DNA of 64,000 nt from Escherichia phage DCP2. The notes under the pieces are model-generated. The model was not told the DNA's origin, searched no databases, and worked only from the letters and a program-made list of their open reading frames with translations. This document shows, one piece after another, positions 3,619 through 61,494 of this stretch. How positions within the stretch are numbered: position 1 is the first letter of the stretch; every line of letters begins with the position of its first letter. The stretch lies in sequence record OR780565.1, one strand, 5' to 3'. Both the position numbers and the translations under genes were made by a program.

Positions 3619-3622
3619 CATT

Positions 3623-3646
3623 AGTCTCCTTCGGGAGACTTTTTTC
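3623..3646 (+). terminator. Hairpin terminator (stem gtctcc/ggagac, UUCG loop, T-run)
   Basis: tagtctccttcgggagactttttt. Confidence 0.7.
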
Positions 3647-3655
3647 ATTTTACCG

Positions 3656-3690
3656 GTTTACTTTCCATTTGAGCTGTGATACTATACAAC
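3656..3690 (+). promoter_or_regulatory. T4-type early promoter
   Basis: GTTTAC at 3656 followed by gatactatacaact; directly downstream of a terminator hairpin. Confidence 0.6.
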
Positions 3691-4467: not shown

Positions 4468-4498
4468 GTTTACAAGTTGGCAAGATTATGATATAGTA
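4468..4498 (+). promoter_or_regulatory. T4-type early promoter with overlapping inverted repeat
   Basis: GTTTAC then tatgatatagtaat; imperfect palindrome ttggcaagatta / taatcttgtcaa. Confidence 0.55.
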
Positions 4499-4632
4499 AT
4501 CTTGTCAACTGCCAAGGAGAAGAGAATGAAAGTTTTGTTTGTTGTGTATGTGATGATTCAATATAATTATCCAATGTTTACTTATAATCTGGTGAACAAC
4601 ATTATTGATATTATTCAAAGGAGTATGTAATT

Positions 4633-7194: not shown

Positions 7195-7219
7195 GGGAGC
7201 CTTCGGGCTCCCTTTTTTT
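7195..7219 (+). terminator. Hairpin terminator
   Basis: gggagccttcgggctccc followed by a T-run. Confidence 0.75.
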
Positions 7220-7243
7220 ATTTCAAAAATTTTTCACAAAATT

Positions 7244-7276
7244 GTTTACAAGCATAAAGCTTTATGGTACTATACA
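7244..7276 (+). promoter_or_regulatory. T4-type early promoter
   Basis: GTTTAC then tatggtactatacaact. Confidence 0.65.
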
Positions 7277-7723: not shown

Positions 7724-7756
7724 GTTTACAGAAGGGTAGTAGTGTGATACTATTAC
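7724..7756 (+). promoter_or_regulatory. T4-type early promoter
   Basis: GTTTAC then gtgtgatactattaccctatc. Confidence 0.6.
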
Positions 7757-7789
7757 CCTATCAAAACAAATGTGAGATTGGAGAATAAA

Positions 7790-8758
7790 ATGAAAACTGT
7801 AACTATCAATAAGGGTATCTACTTCGGTAAAGAAATCTCTGGAACTTTTGAGCTCTTAGGTGAATGGTTCCCAGATAATGCTCCGGTAGATGCACAAGGA
7901 GATGGTAAAGTTTTTGTTGAAATTGACGGTAAGCGTCGCGGTGTTTGGGTTTACAAATCAGACATTTCATATGATGGTGTAAAAGTTGAAGAAGTTAAAG
8001 AATCATATGAAGATATGAAAACCCGCATTAATAAAAGATTTAATGTTATGGGAATGATGACGAATGGTATTATTAATGGAAATATTCGTTCATTAATTAT
8101 CTCTGGCGCAGCAGGTATTGGTAAAACGTATTCTTTAGATAAAGCTTTAAATAAAGCAAATGATATTGGATACATTGAATATAAAAGCATTAATGGTAAA
8201 ATCTCTGGTATTGGTCTTTATGAGCAGCTTTGGAATAATCGTGAAGAGAATTCTGTCCTTTTGATTGATGATGTGGATGTTTTCTCTGATATGGACATTC
8301 TTAATCTTCTGAAAGCTGCTCTGGACACTGGAGAGACCCGTAAAGTCTGCTGGAGCACCGCATCTTCTTACTTAGAAGAAAAAGGCATTGAGCGTGAGTT
8401 TGAATTTAAAGGAACGATTGTTTTTATCACAAACGTTGACATTGACCGCGAATTAGACCGTGGTACTAAACTTGCTCCACATTTACAAGCATTAGTGTCC
8501 CGCTCGGTTTATTTGGATTTGGGTGTTCACACTAATGAAGAAATTATGGTCAGGGTTGAAGATGTTATTCTTTCAACTGACATGATGCAAAAGCGCGGTC
8601 TTTCTGATGAAGAAACTTATAAAGCATTATCATGGATGAAAGTTAATGTTAATCGTTTACGCAATGTTTCACTGCGTACTGCTCTTTATCTTGCTGACTT
8701 TATTATGACCGACAAAAACGGTTGGGAAGAAATTGCTGAGGTTACTCTTCTGAAATAA
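7790..8758 (+). CDS. P-loop ATPase, 322 aa
   Basis: Walker A GAAGIGKT and Walker B VLLIDDVD; ATG with SD ggag; tracked ORF begins at upstream GTG. Confidence 0.7.
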   Translation: MKTVTINKGIYFGKEISGTFELLGEWFPDNAPVDAQGDGKVFVEIDGKRRGVWVYKSDISYDGVKVEEVKESYEDMKTRINKRFNVMGMMTNGIINGNIRSLIISGAAGIGKTYSLDKALNKANDIGYIEYKSINGKISGIGLYEQLWNNREENSVLLIDDVDVFSDMDILNLLKAALDTGETRKVCWSTASSYLEEKGIEREFEFKGTIVFITNVDIDRELDRGTKLAPHLQALVSRSVYLDLGVHTNEEIMVRVEDVILSTDMMQKRGLSDEETYKALSWMKVNVNRLRNVSLRTALYLADFIMTDKNGWEEIAEVTLLK

Positions 8759-9164: not shown

Positions 9165-9196
9165 GTTTACAAGACTGTTCCTCTGTGGTATTATTA
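9165..9196 (+). promoter_or_regulatory. T4-type early promoter
   Basis: GTTTAC then ctgtggtattattaccctatc; near-identical copy at 61323. Confidence 0.65.
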
Positions 9197-9227
9197 CCCT
9201 ATCAACTACGGAGGAACAGAAAATGAA
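9165..9227 (+). repeat. 62-bp promoter plus leader repeat (second copy at 61323..61385)
   Basis: Three mismatches over about 62 bp including SD ggaggaacagaaaATG. Confidence 0.8.
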
Positions 9228-11117: not shown

Positions 11118-12146
11118 ATGAAAACTCGTTCTCAAATTGAAGATATGGTTCGTAATGCCAGCTATACTCGTGATGTTATGACATTTTTGTGTGAAAATAA
11201 TTTAGACCCTGATAAAGTTAATCGTGTTATTCATCACTTTAAGTATACGAATAGCAGTGAATGGGTGCGTAATTTTAGTAAAGCAGGGTATATTACGCAA
11301 ATGACGGCTCGTGAGCAGCTCACCGATTTCTGTAAAACTATTGATTATAAAAATCCTTTGATTGTTCAAGGCGTTGGTCAAAGTAAGGTCGATTTATCAT
11401 CTGGATTTTTCAATCCAAATCATTATCGTATTGAATGGAGATTTATTGCTCTGTTCCGTAGACAATTAAAGCAAATTTTATCAACTGCGAGTCGATTAAA
11501 AGGTTCTGATATTAACTTAAAGAATCTGAAATTTGATGGTTATACTCTTCAGATGGAAGTAAGACCGTTAAAAGAAAATAATAGAACTGCACGAATTAGC
11601 TTTAAGCCTAATACTAAAAATTCTCTTTCAATTTGTGAATGTCTTAAATCACAGCTGACAGAAGCATTTAAGTATATGGATGTTGTTGCTGCTGTTCAAT
11701 CTAAGATTTTACCTCGTTTTGAGCGAAATTGGGAACATACAACAACATATGAACTTGATATGATCGTTTCATTTAAATATGAATTTTTGAGAAAGGATGA
11801 AATTGTTCAAGAGAAAAAGCAGGAAGTGCAAGATACCTTAAATTTAAATTTATCCAATTACTTATCAAACGATCCTAAATGTTGGATGTACAGTTCAAGT
11901 AACATAGATGCATGTAAACTTAATAAAGTGAGTTTTCTTCCTACTGAAAATTCAAATTTTAAACCTGTAGAAAAATGGCACGCTGATGCGATTGAAAAGT
12001 CTCTTAAGGCAGTAGATGATGAACTCGTTAAAGCGACCAATGAAATGCTAGAAGCTGAAAAGGCGTTAGAACAAGCTCAGTCAAGGGTTCAAAATCTGAC
12101 AAAGCAACGTTCTAAACTGAACAATGCACTAAATGCACTGAACTAG
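11118..12146 (+). CDS. Hypothetical protein with C-terminal coiled coil (paralog 2 of 4), 342 aa
   Basis: SD aagga; C-terminal coiled-coil-like segment ending NALNALN. Confidence 0.6.
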   Translation: MKTRSQIEDMVRNASYTRDVMTFLCENNLDPDKVNRVIHHFKYTNSSEWVRNFSKAGYITQMTAREQLTDFCKTIDYKNPLIVQGVGQSKVDLSSGFFNPNHYRIEWRFIALFRRQLKQILSTASRLKGSDINLKNLKFDGYTLQMEVRPLKENNRTARISFKPNTKNSLSICECLKSQLTEAFKYMDVVAAVQSKILPRFERNWEHTTTYELDMIVSFKYEFLRKDEIVQEKKQEVQDTLNLNLSNYLSNDPKCWMYSSSNIDACKLNKVSFLPTENSNFKPVEKWHADAIEKSLKAVDDELVKATNEMLEAEKALEQAQSRVQNLTKQRSKLNNALNALN

Positions 12147-12177
12147 TTTACTTTACCACAAGGATGTGGTATAATGT
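12146..12177 (+). promoter_or_regulatory. T4-type early promoter
   Basis: GTTTAC then ggatgtggtataatg; same 32-bp element recurs at 56535. Confidence 0.65.
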
Positions 12178-38998: not shown

Positions 38999-39031
38999 TT
39001 TACAAGCTGACAAGACTATGGTATAGTAGTC
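38998..39031 (+). promoter_or_regulatory. T4-type early promoter with inverted repeat
   Basis: GTTTAC then ctatggtatagtag; arms acaagacta / tagtcttgt. Confidence 0.6.
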
Positions 39032-39056
39032 TTGTTGGTTAAATGAGGAGATTGTT

Positions 39057-39485: not shown

Positions 39486-39520
39486 GTTTACAAGCTGATA
39501 GAGTTGTGTTATAGTAATTC
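39486..39520 (+). promoter_or_regulatory. T4-type early promoter with inverted repeat
   Basis: GTTTAC then gtgttatagtaatt; arms ctgatagag / ctatcag. Confidence 0.6.
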
Positions 39521-39546
39521 TATCAGCTAATCGCGGAGAAAAGAAA

Positions 39547-40332: not shown

Positions 40333-41361
40333 ATGTCATCAATACCTTGGATTGATAATGAGTTTGCATATCGTGCGCTAGCTCATTTACCTAAATTCAC
40401 ACAAGTAAATAATAGTTCAACTTTTAAATTACGGTTTAGATGCCCTGTTTGTGGAGATTCAAAAACCGACCAAAATAAAGCTCGTGGATGGTATTATGGC
40501 GATAATAATGAAGGAAATATTCATTGCTATAACTGTAACTATCATGCACCAATCGGAATATATTTAAAGGAGTTTGAACCTGATTTATATCGTGAGTATA
40601 TCTTTGAAATAAGAAAAGAAAAAGGTAAAAGTCGTCCAGTAGAAAAACCTAAAGAACTTCCTAAACAACCCGAGAAGAAAATAATTAAATCTCTTCCGTC
40701 ATGCATTAGATTAGATAAACTGACGGAAGACCATCCAATTATAAAATACGTAAAAGCTCGTTGTATTCCAAAGGATAAATGGAAATATCTTTGGTTTACA
40801 ACCGAATGGCCTAAATTAGTTAATAGTATAGCACCAGGAACATATAAAAAGGAAATACCTGAGCCTCGTCTTGTTATTCCAATTTATAATGCTAATGGAA
40901 AAGCTGAGTCTTTTCAAGGACGTGCATTAAAGAAAGATGCTCCTCAAAAATATATCACCATCAAAGCTTATCCTGAGGCAACAAAAATCTATGGTGTTGA
41001 ACGAGTTAAAGATGGTGATGTATATGTTCTAGAAGGACCTATAGATTCACTTTTTATTGAAAATGGTATAGCTATTACGGGTGGTCAATTAGACCTAGAA
41101 ATTGTTCCATTTAAAGATAGACGTGTATGGGTTTTAGATAATGAACCTCGTCACCCTGATACTATTAAACGAATGACTAAATTAGTTGATGCAGGAGAAA
41201 GGGTTATGTTTTGGGATAAATCTCCCTGGAAATCAAAAGATGTTAATGATATGATTAGAAAGGAAGGTGCAACCCCTGAACAAATTATGGAATATATGAA
41301 AAATAATATTGCCCAAGGGTTGATGGCTAAAATGCGGCTATCTAAATATGCTAAGATTTAA
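40333..41361 (+). CDS. 61: DNA primase gp61
   Basis: 342 aa; N-terminal zinc ribbon CPVCGDS...CYNCNYH and Toprim EGPIDSLF. Confidence 0.95.
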   Translation: MSSIPWIDNEFAYRALAHLPKFTQVNNSSTFKLRFRCPVCGDSKTDQNKARGWYYGDNNEGNIHCYNCNYHAPIGIYLKEFEPDLYREYIFEIRKEKGKSRPVEKPKELPKQPEKKIIKSLPSCIRLDKLTEDHPIIKYVKARCIPKDKWKYLWFTTEWPKLVNSIAPGTYKKEIPEPRLVIPIYNANGKAESFQGRALKKDAPQKYITIKAYPEATKIYGVERVKDGDVYVLEGPIDSLFIENGIAITGGQLDLEIVPFKDRRVWVLDNEPRHPDTIKRMTKLVDAGERVMFWDKSPWKSKDVNDMIRKEGATPEQIMEYMKNNIAQGLMAKMRLSKYAKI

Positions 41362-41558
41362 ATTAATCCAACTAAAGCAAATGCTAAATCTACGAATGTA
41401 TCGAGAGTAATTACTGGAATACTAACGCCATGAGCAATAGCAATTGGCGATAAAATAAAGTTCCATAGTAAAATTCCTATCATAGCAGAAATAGTAAAAG
41501 CTATACGTTTTTTATTACCTTTTATGGCATTAACAAGTGCCATTAATTTTTGTACCAT
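41358..41558 (-). CDS. Small membrane protein, 66 aa, on the opposite strand
   Basis: Minus-strand ORF with a strong SD (AAAGGAGG 7 nt before ATG); two hydrophobic segments; its stop overlaps the gene 61 stop. Confidence 0.5.
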   Translation of the reverse strand: MVQKLMALVNAIKGNKKRIAFTISAMIGILLWNFILSPIAIAHGVSIPVITLDTFVDLAFALVGLI

Positions 41559-41607: not shown

Positions 41608-41641
41608 GTTTACTTTCTCAGCTTGCTGTGGTATTATAAAA
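41608..41641 (+). promoter_or_regulatory. T4-type early promoter
   Basis: GTTTAC then gctgtggtattataaa; arms ctcagc / gctgag flank the -10, the second overlapping the SD. Confidence 0.65.
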
Positions 41642-41662
41642 TAAACTGCTGAGGATAATATA

Positions 41663-43000
<1,338 letters not shown>

Positions 43001-43002
<2 letters not shown>

Positions 43003-43965: not shown

Positions 43966-43973
43966 TATAAATA
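43966..43973 (+). promoter_or_regulatory. T4 late promoter (TATAAATA) upstream of soc
   Basis: Exact TATAAATA about 30 nt upstream of the soc ATG. Confidence 0.6.
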
Positions 43974-44002
43974 GTCATGTAATTTAAATAAAGGAGAATT
44001 AC

Positions 44003-44248
44003 ATGGCTAGTACTCGCGGTTATGTTAATATTAAAACATTTGAGCAAAAATTAGATGGAAATAAGAAAATTGAAGGAAAGGAAATTTCTGTAGCTTTCCC
44101 TCTTTATTCTGACGTTCACAAAATTTCTGGCGCTCATTATCAGATATTCCCTTCAGAAAAAGCAGCATATTCTACAGTATATGAAGAAAATCAACGTACT
44201 GAATGGATTACTGCAAACGAAGATTTGTGGAAAGTAACTGGTGAATAA
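44003..44248 (+). CDS. soc: Small outer capsid protein Soc
   Basis: 81 aa; near-identical to T4 Soc as recalled; SD aaaggag. Confidence 0.95.
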   Translation: MASTRGYVNIKTFEQKLDGNKKIEGKEISVAFPLYSDVHKISGAHYQIFPSEKAAYSTVYEENQRTEWITANEDLWKVTGE

Positions 44249-44254
44249 ATTCAA

Positions 44255-44278
44255 GGACTCCTTCGGGAGTCCTTTTTT
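44255..44278 (+). terminator. Hairpin terminator
   Basis: ggactccttcgggagtcc followed by tttttt. Confidence 0.75.
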
Positions 44279-44288
44279 CATTTTACCG

Positions 44289-44321
44289 GTTTACTTTCCA
44301 AAATGAGTATGGTATAATAAA
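44289..44321 (+). promoter_or_regulatory. T4-type early promoter
   Basis: GTTTAC then gtatggtataataa; the 26 bp before it are identical to 3641..3666. Confidence 0.65.
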
Positions 44322-46393: not shown

Positions 46394-46426
46394 GTTTACT
46401 TTCCTTCCTAACAATGATATGATAGC
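46394..46426 (+). promoter_or_regulatory. T4-type early promoter
   Basis: GTTTAC then caatgatatgatag. Confidence 0.6.
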
Positions 46427-46449
46427 TTCTGAAGTATATGGAGGCTATC

Positions 46450-47073
46450 ATGATTATTAATCTTGCAGATGTTGAACAGTTATCTATAAAAGCTGAAAGT
46501 GTCGATTTTCAATATGATATGTATAAAAAAGTCTGTGAAAAATTTACTGACTTTGAACAATCAGTTCTTTGGCAATGTATGGAAGCCAAAAAGAATGAAG
46601 CTCTTCATCGGCAGTTGAATAAAATCGTTAAAAAGCATTTAACTAAATCACCTTATCAGCTATATCGTGGTATATCAAAATCGACAAAAGAGCTCATTAA
46701 AGATTTACAAGTTGGAGAAGTGTTTTCAACGAATAGAGTAGATTCATTTACTACTAGTTTGCACACAGCGTGCGGTTTTTCTTATGTTGAGTATTTCACT
46801 GAAATAATATTTCGCTTAAAAACTGATAAAGCTTTTAATTACTCTGACCATATCAGCGATATTATACTTTCTTCTCCTAATACTGAGTTTAAGTATACAT
46901 ATGAAGATACTGATGGATTAGATTCAGAACGTACTGATAACTTAATGATGATTGTGCGTGAACAAGAATGGATGATTCCAATTGGAAAGTATAGAATAAC
47001 TTCTATTTCAAAAGAAAAATTACACGATTCATTTGGAACATTTAAAGTGTATGATATTGAGGTAGTTGAATGA
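46450..47073 (+). CDS. modB: ADP-ribosyltransferase ModB
   Basis: 207 aa from ATG with SD ggagg; R-S-ExE pattern (YRGIS, STN, EQEWMIP). Confidence 0.8.
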   Translation: MIINLADVEQLSIKAESVDFQYDMYKKVCEKFTDFEQSVLWQCMEAKKNEALHRQLNKIVKKHLTKSPYQLYRGISKSTKELIKDLQVGEVFSTNRVDSFTTSLHTACGFSYVEYFTEIIFRLKTDKAFNYSDHISDIILSSPNTEFKYTYEDTDGLDSERTDNLMMIVREQEWMIPIGKYRITSISKEKLHDSFGTFKVYDIEVVE

Positions 47074-48847: not shown

Positions 48848-50163
48848 CATTTGATGATTTGACCGAAGGCCAGAAAAATGCCTTTAACATTGTTATGAGG
48901 GCTATTAAAGAAAAGAAACATCATGTAACTATTAATGGACCTGCTGGTACTGGTAAGACTACTCTTACTAAGTTCATCATTGAAGCTTTAATATCTACGG
49001 GCGAAACTGGCATTATTTTAGCAGCTCCTACTCATGCAGCTAAAAAGATTCTTTCAAAACTATCAGGGAAAGAAGCGAGTACTATTCACAGTATTCTTAA
49101 AATTAACCCTGTAACATATGAAGAAAACGTTCTTTTTGAACAAAAAGAAGTACCGGATTTGGCTAAATGCAGAGTATTAATCTGTGACGAAGTGTCAATG
49201 TATGATAGAAAGCTATTTAAAATTCTGCTTTCAACTATCCCGCCATGGTGTACTATAATTGGAATAGGCGATAATAAGCAAATTAGACCTGTTGACCCAG
49301 GAGAAAATACTGCTTATATCAGTCCATTTTTTACGCACAAAGATTTTTATCAGTGTGAACTCACTGAAGTTAAACGCAGTAATGCTCCTATTATTGATGT
49401 AGCTACTGATGTTCGTAACGGTAAGTGGATTTATGATAAAATTATTGATGGGCATGGAGTACGTGGATTTACCGGTGATACCGCTTTACGCGATTTTATG
49501 GTAAATTATTTTTCAATCGTAAAATCACTAGATGATTTGTTTGAAAATCGTGTGATGGCATTTACGAATAAATCTGTTGATAAGTTAAATAGCATTATTC
49601 GTAAAAAGATTTTTGAAACTGATAAAGATTTTATTGTCGGTGAAATTATTGTAATGCAGGAACCATTAATTAAAACATATAAAATTGATGGAAAGCCTGT
49701 GTCAGAAATTATTTTTAATAACGGACAATTAGTTCGTATTATAGAAGCAGAGTATACATCAACATTTGTTAAAGCTCGTGGTGTTCCTGGAGAATATCTA
49801 ATTCGTCATTGGGATTTAACAGTAGAAACTTACGGCGATGATGAATATTATCGTGAAAAGATTAAAATAATTTCATCTGATGAAGAGCTGTATAAGTTTA
49901 ACCTATTTTTAGGTAAAACTGCAGAAACTTACAAAAATTGGAATAAAGGCGGAAAGGCTCCATGGAGTGATTTTTGGGATGCTAAATCACAGTTTAGTAA
50001 AGTGAAAGCACTTCCTGCATCAACATTCCATAAAGCTCAGGGTATGTCTGTAGATCGTGCTTTCATCTATACACCTTGTATTCATTATGCAGATGCTGAA
50101 CTAGCACAGCAGCTTCTTTATGTTGGTGTCACTCGTGGTCGTTATGATGTGTTTTACGTATGA
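48844..50163 (+). CDS. dda: DNA helicase Dda (SF1)
   Basis: 439 aa; Walker A GPAGTGKT; ATGA coupling. Confidence 0.95.
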   Translation: MTFDDLTEGQKNAFNIVMRAIKEKKHHVTINGPAGTGKTTLTKFIIEALISTGETGIILAAPTHAAKKILSKLSGKEASTIHSILKINPVTYEENVLFEQKEVPDLAKCRVLICDEVSMYDRKLFKILLSTIPPWCTIIGIGDNKQIRPVDPGENTAYISPFFTHKDFYQCELTEVKRSNAPIIDVATDVRNGKWIYDKIIDGHGVRGFTGDTALRDFMVNYFSIVKSLDDLFENRVMAFTNKSVDKLNSIIRKKIFETDKDFIVGEIIVMQEPLIKTYKIDGKPVSEIIFNNGQLVRIIEAEYTSTFVKARGVPGEYLIRHWDLTVETYGDDEYYREKIKIISSDEELYKFNLFLGKTAETYKNWNKGGKAPWSDFWDAKSQFSKVKALPASTFHKAQGMSVDRAFIYTPCIHYADAELAQQLLYVGVTRGRYDVFYV

Positions 50164-50665: not shown

Positions 50666-51348
50666 TGTTTGATTTTATTATAGATTTTGAAACAATGGGA
50701 AGCGGTGAAAAAGCAGCTGTTATTGATTTGGCTGTTATTGCCTTTGACCCTAACCCAGAAGTAGTTGAAACATTTGATGAATTAGTTTCACGCGGCATTA
50801 AAATCAAATTTGATTTAAAAAGCCAAAAAGGACAACGTCTTTTTACTAAAAGCACCATCGAATGGTGGAAAAATCAGTCTCCTGAAGCTCGAAAAAATAT
50901 TGCACCGTCAGATGAAGATGTAAGCACTATCGATGGTATTGTAAAATTTAATGATTATATCAATGCGCATAATATCGATCCTTGGAAATCTCAAGGCTGG
51001 TGTCGTGGAATGTCGTTTGATTTTCCAATTTTAGTCGATCTCATTCGCGATATTCAACGTCTTAATGGCGTTTCTGAGAATGAACTTGACACATTTAAGT
51101 TAGAACCATGTAAATTCTGGAATCAGCGTGATATTCGTACCAGAATTGAAGCACTTCTCCTTGTTCGTGATATGACCACGTGTCCTCTTCCAAAGGGAAC
51201 TTTAGATGGATTCGTTGCACATGATTCTATTCATGACTGTGCGAAAGACATCCTGATGATGAAGTATGCTTTGCGCTATGCTATGGGTCTTGAAGATGCT
51301 CCATCAGAGGAAGAATGCGATCCTCTGTCTCTTCCAACAAAACGATAA
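50665..51348 (+). CDS. dexA: Exonuclease A (DnaQ-like 3'-5' exonuclease)
   Basis: 227 aa; N-terminal DFET exonuclease motif. Confidence 0.9.
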   Translation: MFDFIIDFETMGSGEKAAVIDLAVIAFDPNPEVVETFDELVSRGIKIKFDLKSQKGQRLFTKSTIEWWKNQSPEARKNIAPSDEDVSTIDGIVKFNDYINAHNIDPWKSQGWCRGMSFDFPILVDLIRDIQRLNGVSENELDTFKLEPCKFWNQRDIRTRIEALLLVRDMTTCPLPKGTLDGFVAHDSIHDCAKDILMMKYALRYAMGLEDAPSEEECDPLSLPTKR

Positions 51349-51354
51349 AAAGTT

Positions 51355-51388
51355 GTTTACTTCCTCAGTTAGTTGTGGTATTATAACA
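51355..51388 (+). promoter_or_regulatory. T4-type early promoter with SD-sequestering inverted repeat
   Basis: GTTTAC then ttgtggtattataac; perfect 7-bp arms cctcagt (51363) and actgagg (51398), the latter containing the SD. Confidence 0.65.
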
Positions 51389-51411
51389 CCATAGCTACTG
51401 AGGATAATAAA

Positions 51412-51912
51412 ATGAAAATTTATCGTGTTGAATCATCGTTTAGTATTCTTGATTATGAAGATGCTATAACAATACGTCGAAATCTTTGTGTTCAAATAAC
51501 GCCGTACAGGAGTATAATAGATTCATGGAGCGAAGAGTGGCTATTACACGTAGGTTATGACAGACCTAATTTTATGCATCATAGCGATAATAATAAAAGA
51601 ATTCCTTTACCACACGAAGATAAACTATTAGTTAAAAACGCTAATATAGTAATTAATACTAAGTTCAAGAAAGATTATGTTGGATTAGAATATCATATTC
51701 CAGGATGGTTTATAGCTCTTTATCATTTTGCTTTCGCTAGTGAATATGATATGATGAGATGGTTCACACGAGAAGAGCGGGAAGAATTATCTTCTAAAGG
51801 ATTTTATCTCGCTGTATACGAAGTTCCAGATGATCAAGTTATCATTGGCGGGCACCAAGTAATGTTCCGCAAATCGCATGCTGAACTCATAGATTTTATT
51901 GAAATGAGATAA
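51412..51912 (+). CDS. Hypothetical protein, 166 aa
   Basis: ATG with SD tgaggataat after the promoter. Confidence 0.55.
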   Translation: MKIYRVESSFSILDYEDAITIRRNLCVQITPYRSIIDSWSEEWLLHVGYDRPNFMHHSDNNKRIPLPHEDKLLVKNANIVINTKFKKDYVGLEYHIPGWFIALYHFAFASEYDMMRWFTREEREELSSKGFYLAVYEVPDDQVIIGGHQVMFRKSHAELIDFIEMR

Positions 51913-52460: not shown

Positions 52461-52463
52461 TAG

Positions 52464-52496
52464 TTTACAAACTCTTGGGACCAGAGTATAATGGTC
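52464..52496 (+). promoter_or_regulatory. T4-type early promoter
   Basis: GTTTAC then cagagtataatgg; arms ggacca / tggtcc. Confidence 0.6.
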
Positions 52497-52536
52497 CTGT
52501 GGAGTATAAAATCTTTTTAACAAGTGAGAGATAACT

Positions 52537-53047: not shown

Positions 53048-53095
53048 CTATATACATCAGTAGTTGATTATGGTACTATATCAATATCAACTACT
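53048..53095 (+). promoter_or_regulatory. Promoter-like -10 (tatggtactatat) framed by a perfect 11-bp inverted repeat
   Basis: cagtagttgat ... atcaactactg around the -10-like sequence; no GTTTAC box. Confidence 0.45.
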
Positions 53096-53197
53096 GATAC
53101 AGAAAACAACTTAGAGAATAAAATGGAAAATTTGCCAAAGGTGCTGCTACTCTTCTGAAACGCATCACTCCAATGTTCAATTAATGAGGAAATTGTA

Positions 53198-54719: not shown

Positions 54720-56537
54720 ATGATTAAGAATGAAATTAAAATTCTGAGCGATATTGAACATATCAAAAAGCGTAGCGGCATGTACATTGGTTCTTCTGCT
54801 AATGAAATGCATGAGCGCTTTCTGTTTGGTAAATGGGAAAGTGTTCAGTATGTACCTGGTCTTGTTAAGCTTATTGATGAAATTATCGATAACTCAGTAG
54901 ATGAAGGTATTCGTACTAAGTTTAAATTCGCAAATAAAATTAATGTTACCATTAAAAATAATCAGGTAACAGTTGAAGATAACGGTCGTGGTATTCCACA
55001 GGCGATGGTTAAAACACCTACCGGTGAAGAAATTCCTGGTCCTGTTGCTGCCTGGACTATTCCAAAAGCAGGTGGTAACTTTGGTGATGATAAAGAACGC
55101 GTCACCGGCGGTATGAACGGTGTTGGTTCTAGTTTAACTAACATTTTTTCTGTGATGTTTGTCGGTGAAACTGGCGACGGTCAAAATAATATTGTGGTTC
55201 GCTGCTCGAATGGCATGGAAAATAAATCATGGGAAGATATTCCTGGAAAATGGAAAGGAACTCGCGTTACTTTCATTCCTGATTTTATGTCATTTGAAAC
55301 TAATGAGCTATCTCAAGTTTATCTTGACATTACACTAGATCGTCTCCAGACACTTGCGGTAGTTTATCCTGATATTCAATTTACCTTTAATGGTAAAAAG
55401 GTTCAGGGTAATTTTAAGAAATATGCACGCCAATATGATGAACATGCTATTGTTCAAGAACAAGAAAATTGTTCTATTGCGGTTGGTCGTTCACCGGATG
55501 GTTTTCGTCAATTAACATACGTCAATAACATTCATACTAAGAATGGTGGCCATCACATTGACTGTGTTATGGATGATATTTGTGAAGACCTTATTCCACA
55601 AATCAAACGTAAATTCAAAATTGATGTAACTAAAGCACGTGTTAAAGAATGTTTGACTATCGTTATGTTTGTCCGTGATATGAAAAACATGCGATTTGAT
55701 TCTCAAACTAAAGAGCGTTTGACTTCTCCATTTGGTGAAATTCGTAGTCATATTCAGCTTGATGCTAAAAAGATTTCACGTGCTATTTTGAATAATGAAG
55801 CAATTTTAATGCCAATCATTGAAGCTGCTTTGGCTCGTAAATTGGCGGCAGAAAAAGCAGCAGAAACTAAAGCAGCTAAAAAGGCTTCTAAAGCTAAGGT
55901 TCATAAACATATTAAAGCGAATCTTTGTGGTAAAGATGCTGACACTACTCTTTTCTTGACTGAGGGTGATTCTGCTATTGGATATCTTATTGATGTTCGT
56001 GATAAAGAACTTCATGGTGGTTATCCATTGCGTGGTAAAGTTCTTAACAGTTGGGGTATGTCATATGCTGATATGCTTAAAAACAAAGAACTATTTGATA
56101 TTTGCGCAATCACTGGATTAGTTCTTGGTGAAAAAGCTGAAAACTTGAATTATCATAATATTGCAATTATGACCGATGCTGACCATGATGGTCTAGGAAG
56201 CATTTATCCTTCTCTGCTCGGATTTTTTAGTAATTGGCCAGAATTGTTTGAACAAGGAAGAATTCGCTTTGTCAAAACTCCTGTAATCATCGCTCAGGTA
56301 GGTAAAAAACAAGAATGGTTTTATACAGTCGCTGAATATGAGAGTGCTAAAGATGCTCTACCTAAACATAGCATCCGTTATATTAAGGGACTTGGCTCTT
56401 TGGAAAAATCTGAATATCGCGAGATGATTCAAAACCCAGTATATGATGTTGTTAAACTTCCTGAGAACTGGAAAGAGCTTTTTGAAATGCTCATGGGAGA
56501 TAATGCTGACCTTCGTAAAGAATGGATGAGCCAGTAG
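54720..56537 (+). CDS. 39: DNA topoisomerase II large subunit gp39 (GyrB-like), unsplit
   Basis: 605 aa; GHKL ATPase EDNGRGIP and Toprim LTEGDSA; one continuous ORF (T4 splits this into genes 39 and 60). Confidence 0.95.
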   Translation: MIKNEIKILSDIEHIKKRSGMYIGSSANEMHERFLFGKWESVQYVPGLVKLIDEIIDNSVDEGIRTKFKFANKINVTIKNNQVTVEDNGRGIPQAMVKTPTGEEIPGPVAAWTIPKAGGNFGDDKERVTGGMNGVGSSLTNIFSVMFVGETGDGQNNIVVRCSNGMENKSWEDIPGKWKGTRVTFIPDFMSFETNELSQVYLDITLDRLQTLAVVYPDIQFTFNGKKVQGNFKKYARQYDEHAIVQEQENCSIAVGRSPDGFRQLTYVNNIHTKNGGHHIDCVMDDICEDLIPQIKRKFKIDVTKARVKECLTIVMFVRDMKNMRFDSQTKERLTSPFGEIRSHIQLDAKKISRAILNNEAILMPIIEAALARKLAAEKAAETKAAKKASKAKVHKHIKANLCGKDADTTLFLTEGDSAIGYLIDVRDKELHGGYPLRGKVLNSWGMSYADMLKNKELFDICAITGLVLGEKAENLNYHNIAIMTDADHDGLGSIYPSLLGFFSNWPELFEQGRIRFVKTPVIIAQVGKKQEWFYTVAEYESAKDALPKHSIRYIKGLGSLEKSEYREMIQNPVYDVVKLPENWKELFEMLMGDNADLRKEWMSQ

Positions 56538-56569
56538 TTTACTTTACCACAAGGATGTGGTATAATTAA
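56537..56569 (+). promoter_or_regulatory. T4-type early promoter
   Basis: GTTTAC then ggatgtggtataatt; 32-bp identity with 12143..12174. Confidence 0.65.
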
Positions 56570-60816: not shown

Positions 60817-60848
60817 GTTTACATACCACAAGGACCGTGGTACTATAC
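60817..60848 (+). promoter_or_regulatory. T4-type early promoter
   Basis: GTTTAC then ccgtggtactatacaact. Confidence 0.65.
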
Positions 60849-60873
60849 AACTATCAACTACAGAGGAACAAAA

Positions 60874-61322: not shown

Positions 61323-61354
61323 GTTTACAAGACTGTTCTTCCGTGGTACTATTA
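61323..61354 (+). promoter_or_regulatory. T4-type early promoter
   Basis: GTTTAC then ccgtggtactattaccctatc; second copy of the 62-bp repeat. Confidence 0.65.
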
Positions 61355-61380
61355 CCCTATCAACTACGGAGGAACAGAAA

Positions 61381-61494
61381 ATGAAAAAGATTGTTAAAGC
61401 TATATGGAATGTAGTTATAATACTAGTAGTTTTGAGTATATTCCTAATCGTTTTAATGATTGATGTATTAAACGCTTACTTTGGATTTATGTGA
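61381..61494 (+). CDS. Small hydrophobic peptide, 37 aa
   Basis: ATG with SD ggagg after the promoter; single TM-like segment. Confidence 0.35.
   Translation: MKKIVKAIWNVVIILVVLSIFLIVLMIDVLNAYFGFM

Follow-up and report, generated by a model that had tools for sequence, protein, structure and literature searches.

Early promoters and the motB.2 leader

The 64,000-nt stretch of Escherichia phage DCP2 DNA considered here (sequence record OR780565.1; hereafter the window) is the early region of a Tequatrovirus. A 4-kb piece around the motB.2 site shows up to 96% identity to hundreds of Tequatrovirus genomes, and the plus strand is the early sense strand, equivalent to the minus strand of T4. In a pattern scan (GTTTAC, 18 nt, TAnnnT), this strand carries 22 T4-type early promoters, each with a Shine-Dalgarno (SD) sequence and an ATG within 20-40 nt downstream. 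An earlier note on this DNA had proposed that at several of these promoters one arm of an inverted repeat lies upstream of the -10 and the other overlaps the SD, such that only transcripts arriving from further upstream could sequester the SD. The repeats it named are all present, with coordinates off by at most 1-2 nt. At motB.2 (site 1), which lies in the plus-strand gene order dda - dexA - motB.2 - motB - cef - goF, the features are as follows.

51346-51348, plus strand: stop codon of dexA, ending 6 nt before the -35 of the next promoter, with no terminator between
51355-51384, plus strand: early promoter of motB.2, from the pattern scan (-35 GTTTAC at 51355-51360, 18-nt spacer, -10 TATTAT at 51379-51384)
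51362-51379, plus strand: 5' arm of the site 1 stem, ttcctcagt.tagttgtggt, filling the spacer
51388-51404, plus strand: 3' arm, accatagctactgagga, with the SD GAGGA at 51400-51404
51412, plus strand: ATG of motB.2

Local transcription starts, here and below, are predicted at ~7 nt past the -10 and are not mapped; for motB.2 this gives ~51391, and an RNA started there lacks the 5' arm. The short repeat seen earlier, cctcagt at 51363-51369 and actgagg at 51397-51403, is part of a larger stem of 17 bp with one bulge and an 8-nt loop that contains part of the -10 TATTAT; the pairing is found in both the minimum-energy and the centroid structures. With the end of dexA included, an 87-nt read-through RNA has a folding energy of -32.4 kcal/mol (z = -7.8; 0/200 shuffles as good), and its outer helices cover the AUG too, whereas the locally started RNA folds at -1.8 kcal/mol (z = -0.2). 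The 3' arm also holds the GGAU that RegB cuts in T4 motB.2. The T4 orthologue of this promoter lies at 8218, likewise upstream of motB.2.

Early promoters whose spacer pairs with the SD

The promoter inverted repeats are of two classes, which the earlier note had merged. In class A, to which site 1 belongs, an arm in the promoter spacer pairs with the SD region. In class B, the -10 lies in the loop of a tight hairpin, the stem of which ends 4-7 nt or more before the SD. Leader length is alike in both (about 21-25 nt), and the class A 3' arm sits 10-13 nt further downstream than that of class B, exactly over the SD, with a larger loop. The class A sites have early sigma-70 promoters of the form GTTTAC-N18-TAnnnT; the late-promoter sequence TATAAATA is found only at soc (43967-43974). 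Class A includes four other sites in the window.

9165-9225, plus strand: nrdC.8 promoter, the strongest class A site (-35 at 9165-9170; 15 bp; duplex -25.7 kcal/mol, z = -7.5); 5' arm ctgttcctctgtggt at 9175-9189, 3' arm actacggaggaacag at 9205-9219 with the SD GGAGG, ATG at 9223
61323-61383, plus strand: promoter of a 37-aa open reading frame (ORF) in the ndd region (15 bp; duplex -25.2 kcal/mol, z = -6.4); 5' arm ctgttcttccgtggt at 61333-61347, 3' arm actacggaggaacag at 61363-61377, ATG at 61381
46394-46458, plus strand: modB promoter (duplex -15.3 kcal/mol, p = 0.018; fold -19.3, z = -2.4); 5' arm 46413-46430 including the -10 TATGAT, 3' arm 46440-46458 including the SD GGAGG and the ATG (46450)
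41608-41665, plus strand: site 2, a weak class A site and a paralogue of the site 1 cassette (promoter 41608-41637, ATG at 41663); arms ttctcagc at 41615-41622 and gctgagga (with the SD) at 41648-41655, 8 bp, 25-nt loop, around the core repeat ctcagc (41617-41622) and gctgag (41648-41653)

The 5' arm is housed in the -35/-10 spacer and, at modB, overlaps the -10. No other SD-pairing sites in the window are as strong as 9165 and 61323, judged by z against shuffled upstream arms; both had been overlooked, as had modB.

The check that the earlier note had suggested, folding of long versus short leaders, bears out its idea at 51355, 41608, 46394, 9165 and 61323. At these five sites the local transcript lacks the first arm, and the predicted probability that the SD is unpaired drops from 0.60-0.88 in the short leader to 0.00-0.02 in the read-through RNA (0.80 to 0.00 at nrdC.8, 0.88 to 0.00 at 61323, 0.70 to 0.01 at modB and 0.85 to 0.02 in the site 2 ensemble). 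The long class A RNAs fold at -32.4 (z = -7.8), -30.2 (-5.8), -22.9 (-3.9) and -19.3 (-2.4) kcal/mol, compared to 0 to -2.6 kcal/mol for the short ones, with z about 0 or above. At site 2, the read-through RNA folds at -10.9 kcal/mol with z = -0.67, and the duplex has p ~0.05. In T4, the orthologue of the 61323 site (at 166807) forms a duplex of -23.4 kcal/mol; the modB pairing is kept in both T4 (-15.3) and RB69 (-13.3).

Two other promoters were considered. That of mrh.2 (44289) was left out of class A, given its borderline duplex (-10.1), a real terminator upstream and its lack of conservation in relatives. Promoter 33529 is only a possible member: its SD becomes less accessible (0.77 to 0.10), yet the energy of its duplex falls inside the range given by shuffles, and the T4 orthologue (27080) has a different spacer and a weak duplex (-7.3).

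Pairing exceeds that expected by chance

To score each promoter, we computed the duplex between the segment running from the -35 to the base before the start and the translation initiation region (TIR; ATG-18 to ATG+2). The sample comprised 79 promoters (22 from the window, 31 from T4 and 26 from RB69), of which those of the window and T4 are orthologous and hence no independent samples. At the class A cut-off of -12 kcal/mol or better, a duplex was found for 17/79 promoters (21.5%). Corresponding values were 1/79 for the 36 nt upstream of the -35 against the TIR, 0/79 for 36 nt inside the ORF against the TIR, 4/79 for the reversed arm, 5.8% for spacer-shuffled arms and 6.8% for promoters matched with a non-cognate TIR. 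All five controls lie at 0-7%. For the window promoters alone, 5/22 reach the cut-off, versus 0/22 in each of three positional controls and 6-8% with shuffled spacers or permuted promoter/TIR pairs; for RB69 alone, the count is 5/26. With a stricter cut-off of -17 kcal/mol, 9/79 promoters remain, versus 1/3950 shuffles. When the spacer was instead compared with all sequence 3' of the -10, a measure that covers both class A and class B, 32/79 promoters scored at -12 or better, versus 3.6% of shuffles, and about half of these 32 spacer hairpins do not reach the SD.

Recurrence and covariation in other phages

These sites occur in T4 too, along with others that lie outside the window, among them regB and denV. 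At motB.2, regB, denV and nrdC.8, complementarity is kept while the bases of the arms differ between T4, RB69 and JS98-like phages.

motB.2 arms: T4-type cctcRgt / actgagg; JS98-like ttctcctcatg / catgaggagaa; RB69 ttctcctctggtt / aaccagaggagaa
regB arms: T4-type ttttcctctt / aagaggagaa; JS98-like atctcctgtag / ctacaggagat; RB69 ttctcctctagttg / caactagaggagaa
denV arms: T4-type tctcctgtag / ctacaggaga; RB69 ttcctccaag / cttggaggaa
nrdC.8 arms: T4-type 13-15 bp; JS98-like ctccagtag / ctactggag; RB69, pairing lost

There are three distinct arm pairs for regB, two for denV and two for nrdC.8, and swapping arms between lineages costs 3-11 kcal/mol. Recurrence at orthologous genes of the RB69 and JS98-like lineages was seen in 7/8 checks, in a set unselected for pairing. 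The next two sets were picked because they pair, and their figures are inflated to that extent: of 16 cassettes with a common anti-SD/SD core, 12/16 pair best with their cognate TIR (mean -17.9 kcal/mol for cognate versus -11.4 ± 0.7 for permuted pairs, p < 5e-5), and in an in-register alignment of eight cassettes, 6/12 pairs vary at both positions, with pairing in 94.8% of cells, compared to 50-63% with the partner slid by 1-3 columns. At the level of sequence, the comparison shows that pairing is maintained across phages.

We also scanned IMG/VR with a 14-mer in which only the 5' arm core GTTTACTTCTCCTC was fixed. Most of the 120 matches are chance occurrences in unrelated viruses, while 16 have promoter architecture, ~11 of these being T4-like. 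The latter represent six distinct T4-like variants, and 5/6 have 3-6 further complementary bases beside the core. In RB49, 0/20 promoters pair with the SD, and 6/20 have hairpins around the -10.

The regB gene of a JS98-like phage (L021 2141) and T4 denV (65413) have nearly the same cassette, atctcctgtag ... ctacaggaga; therefore, spacer and leader appear to have been exchanged together. Each exchanged cassette is still internally complementary.

Hairpins around the -10 that end before the SD

The class B sites of the window, and one that resembles them, are listed here (fold energies in kcal/mol).

4475-4510, plus strand: class B, the third site of the earlier note (promoter 4468); arms 4475-4489 and 4496-4510, 15 bp; fold -24.6, z = -3.6
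39005-39040, plus strand: class B, the fourth site of the earlier note (promoter 38998); arms 39005-39019 and 39026-39040, 15 bp; z = -3.45
39486-39535, plus strand: class B; agctgatagagtt / aattctatcagct around the -10 TATAGT; -19.4
52463-52510, plus strand: class B, motB promoter; gggacca / tggtcct around the -10 TATAAT; -17.9 (T4 orthologue -20.2)
7724-7770, plus strand: class B; gggtagtag / ctattaccc overlapping the -10 TACTAT; -16.9
53056-53098, plus strand: class B-like; perfect 13-bp arms 53056-53068 and 53086-53098; z = -5.4

At 4475, the 6-nt loop gatata contains the first four bases of the -10 TATAGT (4492-4497), the last two being in the 3' arm, and the SD AAGGAG (4515-4520) lies outside the stem. 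The hairpin at 39005 likewise has a 6-nt loop, with most of the -10, and an SD, GAGGAG, downstream of the stem. The earlier note had placed the second arm over the SD at four promoters. This is so at 51363/51398 and 41617/41649, whereas at ~4476-4510 and ~39004-39035 the 3' arms end 4-7 nt short of it, and SD accessibility is unchanged between short and long leaders (0.66 to 0.73 at 4475; 0.60 to 0.71 at 39005). In these predicted folds, class B leaves the SD unmasked. Its design is read-through-only like that of class A, ending before the SD, and it is best equated with the published PeSL stem-loops.

For the hairpin at 53056, which had been reported at 53048-53095, perfect arms and an uninvolved SD are confirmed, and the arms measure 13 bp rather than 11. 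The -10 TACTAT occupies a 17-nt loop and follows a degenerate -35, ATATAC. Nothing was found in favor of the proposal that it is a protein-binding site: it is built like the other hairpins that hold the -10 in the loop, and its 3' arm consists of ATCAACTACTGAT, a leader shared widely. The element is identical in T4 and close relatives and hence gives no covariation information. All told, the observation made in the earlier note is partly confirmed; the repeats are real, stronger than stated at some sites, mis-assigned at two and weak at one.

Several related motifs were noticed. The leader ATCAACTAC(T/G) is common to the first bases of many early transcripts (e.g. 9201-9209, 60853-60861 and 53086-53094), and several 5' arms complement this leader and not gene-specific sequence. 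In RB69, the class B hairpin aggacta-tgttatag-tagtcct is common to many early promoters (e.g. 57675, 67945, 69240, 76445 and 76798), a family that conserves the initial transcribed sequence TAGTCCTATCAA together with its complement in the spacer. A small hairpin wholly within the spacer (accaca-agga-tgtggt, 5-6 bp) is common to three promoters of the window (12146-12175, 56537-56566 and 60817-60846) and resembles RB49 PeSL stems located between -35 and -10. A scan of the whole window with Rfam 15 gave 0 matches at the gathering threshold.

Read-through transcripts and a proposed switch

At three class A promoters (51355, 9165 and 46394), 2-11 nt containing no terminator separate the -35 from the end of an upstream ORF. 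For 61323 and 41608, the nearest upstream ORF (at least 40 aa) is ~185 and ~246 nt away. Read-through at site 1 is structurally unavoidable, because the dexA stop codon lies 6 nt before the -35 and is not followed by a terminator. In T4, the middle promoters Pdex.2 and Pvs.7 have been mapped upstream of motB.2 and regB (Hinton 2010, Table 1), and a counterpart of the former is present in the window.

49470-49525, plus strand: counterpart of Pdex.2, inside dda, 54/56 identical to T4

It would be a source of transcripts that cross dexA into site 1. None of the promoters with a UUCG-loop/T-run terminator just upstream (3656, 7244 and 44289) belongs to class A. At ~3620-3690 and 44253-44320, terminator and promoter form a cassette, in which a UUCG-tetraloop hairpin and a T-run are followed directly by tttttcattttaccgGTTTACTTTCCA; a similar cassette at ~7195-7250 has a different linker and -35 context, and all three are without an SD-pairing arm.

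How could such an arrangement work? RNA from the local early promoter would have its 5' end ~7 nt beyond the -10, within the loop or 3' of it, and without the 5' arm its leader would be unstructured and highly translatable. RNA from an upstream early or middle promoter would carry both arms. The 5' arm would be made ~30 nt before the SD emerges, allowing the helix to close at once and to block 30S binding, with the SD, and at some sites the AUG too, closed in the read-through RNA. The gene would then be translated only from its own immediate-early promoter, in the first minutes of infection, and later read-through would be silent. The same helix would hide GGAG or GGAU from RegB in the long RNAs. 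We infer the block, its timing and the effect on RegB from the predicted folds and from precedent: experiments have established promoter-dependent sequestering of the TIR for four T4 genes, e, soc, 49 and I-TevI (Uzan & Miller 2010), and by analogy read-through RNA of class A genes should be poorly translated. The earlier note's statement that the switch is known for a few T4 genes agrees with this literature. Its interpretation is partly supported, holding for class A as a well-supported prediction from folding. That translation of class A genes depends on which promoter made the RNA is, in our judgment, somewhat more likely than not. A broader proposal is that T-even phages use the 18-nt -35/-10 spacer of early promoters as a translational silencer, with ~20% carrying an anti-SD arm matched to their own gene and ~40% taking part in read-through-only hairpins, and with the promoter of origin deciding genome-wide translation and RegB cutting of small early genes; on this we are evenly divided.

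Several points weigh against the promoter-dependent reading. All functional claims for class A genes are made by analogy. Ribosomes terminating 12-15 nt upstream might open the base of the helix, and loops of 15-30 nt weaken several class A helices. Site 2 taken alone is within chance (not significant) and stands only via its likeness to site 1. Anti-SD 4-mers are ~3-fold enriched in spacers (17/79 versus 6-8%), but SD-like 4-mers are ~2-fold enriched too; motif counts are therefore not diagnostic and were unused. The feature must be dispensable at some genes, because the nrdC.8 pairing is lost in RB69 and the mrh.2 candidate is unconserved. Finally, besides the selection of the 16- and eight-cassette sets noted above, cassettes move between genes as units, and hence part of the apparent covariation is replacement rather than stepwise compensation.

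Alternative explanations

One alternative is that all of these hairpins are of the PeSL type, attenuating or terminating upstream transcription, stabilizing upstream 3' ends or serving as recombination cassettes, with SD overlap a by-product of short leaders. The sections of Arbiol 2010 and Comeau 2014 that describe PeSLs mention an A/T-rich upstream region, a strong sigma-70-type promoter, a stem-loop in or over the promoter, G·T pairs, and an SD and ATG on the 3' side, the element being repeated between small early genes and exchanged between genes. The sites of the window have an early promoter with A/T-rich upstream sequence and an SD and ATG within ~60 nt, and the class B-type stem-loop is found at 4468, 38998, 39486, 52463, 7724 and 53056-53098; site 1 also has the -10 in the loop. 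According to the relevant part of Arbiol 2010, PeSL hairpins of RB49/phi1 lie between -35 and -10 or over the -10, and one acted as a terminator when placed in a reporter; the corresponding text of Comeau 2014 reports PeSLs for T4/PST as well. The 32/79 promoters with a spacer-to-downstream hairpin, about half of them short of the SD, and the occurrence of the same cassettes at unrelated genes fit this idea. However, no U-run follows any of the stems, which speaks against classical intrinsic termination. In class A, moreover, the 3' arm is shifted 10-13 nt onto the SD at the cost of a larger loop, leader length being equal, and the arms vary along with the bases next to each SD. RB49 is the phage for which PeSLs were defined, and there 0/20 promoters pair with the SD. 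The same portions of the two papers propose termination or attenuation and recombination, treat the SD only as a landmark that is not linked to the stems, and (Comeau 2014) describe the T4/PST stems as just upstream of the promoter. For class A, we consider an explanation by PeSL function unlikely.

A second possibility is that the helix mainly shields intercistronic GGAG or GGAU from RegB in long, middle-mode polycistronic RNAs, an effect that would be compatible with promoter-dependent translation. RegB requires single-stranded RNA, in which it cuts GGAG and GGAU, and in vivo it cuts only two GGAU sites, that of motB.2 being one (Durand 2006, PMC1702504); regB cuts its own SD, and secondary structure inhibits the enzyme. 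GGAG is present in most class A SDs. On the other hand, the GGAG of T4 denV, which lacks the A-rich 3' element, is RegB-resistant, yet a perfect 10-bp helix covers it in both T4 and RB69; site 2 has GGAU followed by an A-rich stretch, and at some sites the helix extends over the AUG. Shielding from RegB cannot be the whole story, because denV has the helix despite its resistant GGAG, and as the main role it seems improbable to us.

Alternatively, the repeats might function at the DNA level, either as an operator through which a dimeric repressor controls early promoters or by forming a cruciform to aid promoter opening. Their location, on both sides of the -10 or overlapping it, is where operators are classically found, and the shut-off of T4 early promoters is unexplained. 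Yet only complementarity is conserved between promoters and phages, with arm sequences varying between sites and phages, whereas a protein operator would have conserved arms and equal symmetry on both strands, and the distance between arms varies (6-30 nt). In imperfect stems, those mismatches that were read out prove to be G·U in the mRNA sense, equivalent to A·C on the opposite strand, and such stems are far more stable in sense than in antisense (-25.7 versus -16.5 and -19.8 versus -12.1 kcal/mol). The class B hairpin at 39005 also has G·U pairs in the mRNA sense only (-19.3 versus -11.5). Across the 79 promoters, folds of the sense strand are the more stable (Wilcoxon p = 2e-4). Together with arms that are unconserved and complementarity that is conserved, this asymmetry argues for a structure in the sense transcript and against an operator or cruciform, which we regard as very improbable.

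Chance complementarity between pyrimidine-rich spacers and purine-rich SDs might account for site 2 alone, which is inside the shuffle distribution, and any spacer resembling an anti-SD will form duplexes of about -10 to -12 kcal/mol with many SDs, but for class A as a whole the enrichment, the cognate-versus-permuted test, the complementary extensions and the recurrence in orthologs lead us to reject it as scarcely credible.

Relation to known systems

The closest parallel to promoter-dependent masking by class A is the group formed by T4 e, soc, 49 and I-TevI (also I-TevII/III, segB and Aeh1 mobE), in which a helix containing the SD and/or AUG has its 5' strand located upstream of a promoter or overlapping one; long transcripts are silent and those from the internal promoter open. 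Class A is alike in its predicted folds: the SD is paired in upstream-started RNA, and the gene's own transcripts lack the 5' strand. In the published cases consulted, however, the internal promoter is a late one (gp55, TATAAATA), and the effect is to delay a late protein. In class A, the promoter is an immediate-early sigma-70 promoter whose spacer is itself the 5' arm, and the effect would be the reverse, early-only expression. Class A is also far more frequent, with ~20% of early promoters versus a handful of genes for the late-promoter type. The soc hairpin of the window (43972-44011, late promoter at 43967-43974), used as a positive control, folds at -20.2 kcal/mol (z = -2.5), no more strongly than the new class A sites, and resembles them in its predicted behavior.

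Intrinsic terminators are similar in that a stable intergenic RNA hairpin lies downstream of a gene. The class A and B stems have no U-run and have loops of up to 30 nt, and the UUCG terminators (e.g. 44253-44274) look quite unlike them. In a terminator scan of the window, which lists 44253-44274 as a real terminator, no promoter hairpin combines a G+C-rich hairpin, a 3-8 nt loop and a T-run; 46418-46452 is the only one listed, with a mixed A/T tail. Translational coupling hairpins, such as that of MS2 coat/replicase, also close a downstream SD by long-range pairing with upstream RNA. At 9165 and 51355, however, the 5' arm starts 12-14 nt past the upstream stop codon and a terminating ribosome would barely reach it; opening of class A would come from a change of 5' end and not depend on translation upstream.

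The reviews consulted on transcription and on post-transcriptional regulation in T4 describe late-promoter cases only, and a five-genome comparison of early promoters does not mention hairpins. Within this literature, SD masking at early promoters is apparently an undescribed variant of the known late-promoter mechanism, with priority uncertain.

Synthesis of T4 immediate-early proteins stops abruptly minutes after infection, which promoter shut-off and RegB explain only partly; the mechanism is, according to reviews, incompletely understood. If class A acts as proposed, promoter shut-off alone would end synthesis from regB, modB, denV, motB.2, nrdC.8 and genes like them despite middle-mode read-through, and the end of immediate-early synthesis during continued transcription of the genes would have a built-in cause. 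The interest of the finding lies mainly in its frequency and in this bearing on the limits of immediate-early expression. It would also give promoter-spacer sequence a functional reason, and promoter-plus-leader cassettes would have to move as a unit to keep working. For annotation and engineering of T4-like phages, a gene with its native leader placed behind a foreign upstream promoter may be silenced.

Genes next to site 2

The site 2 cassette precedes a 186-aa ORF located between the primase gene 61 and dam, where T4 lacks it.

41663-42223, plus strand: 186-aa ORF, matching the DpnII and BanI restriction endonuclease families weakly and below threshold (E ~0.005)
42223-43002: dam, GATC methylase
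41358-41558, minus strand: 66-aa hydrophobic ORF with its own SD, between gene 61 and the site 2 promoter

Given its position directly upstream of dam, the 186-aa ORF may encode a nuclease partner of this methylase. The 66-aa ORF may be comparable to RB69 ORF029w, which is likewise on the opposite strand beside gene 61.

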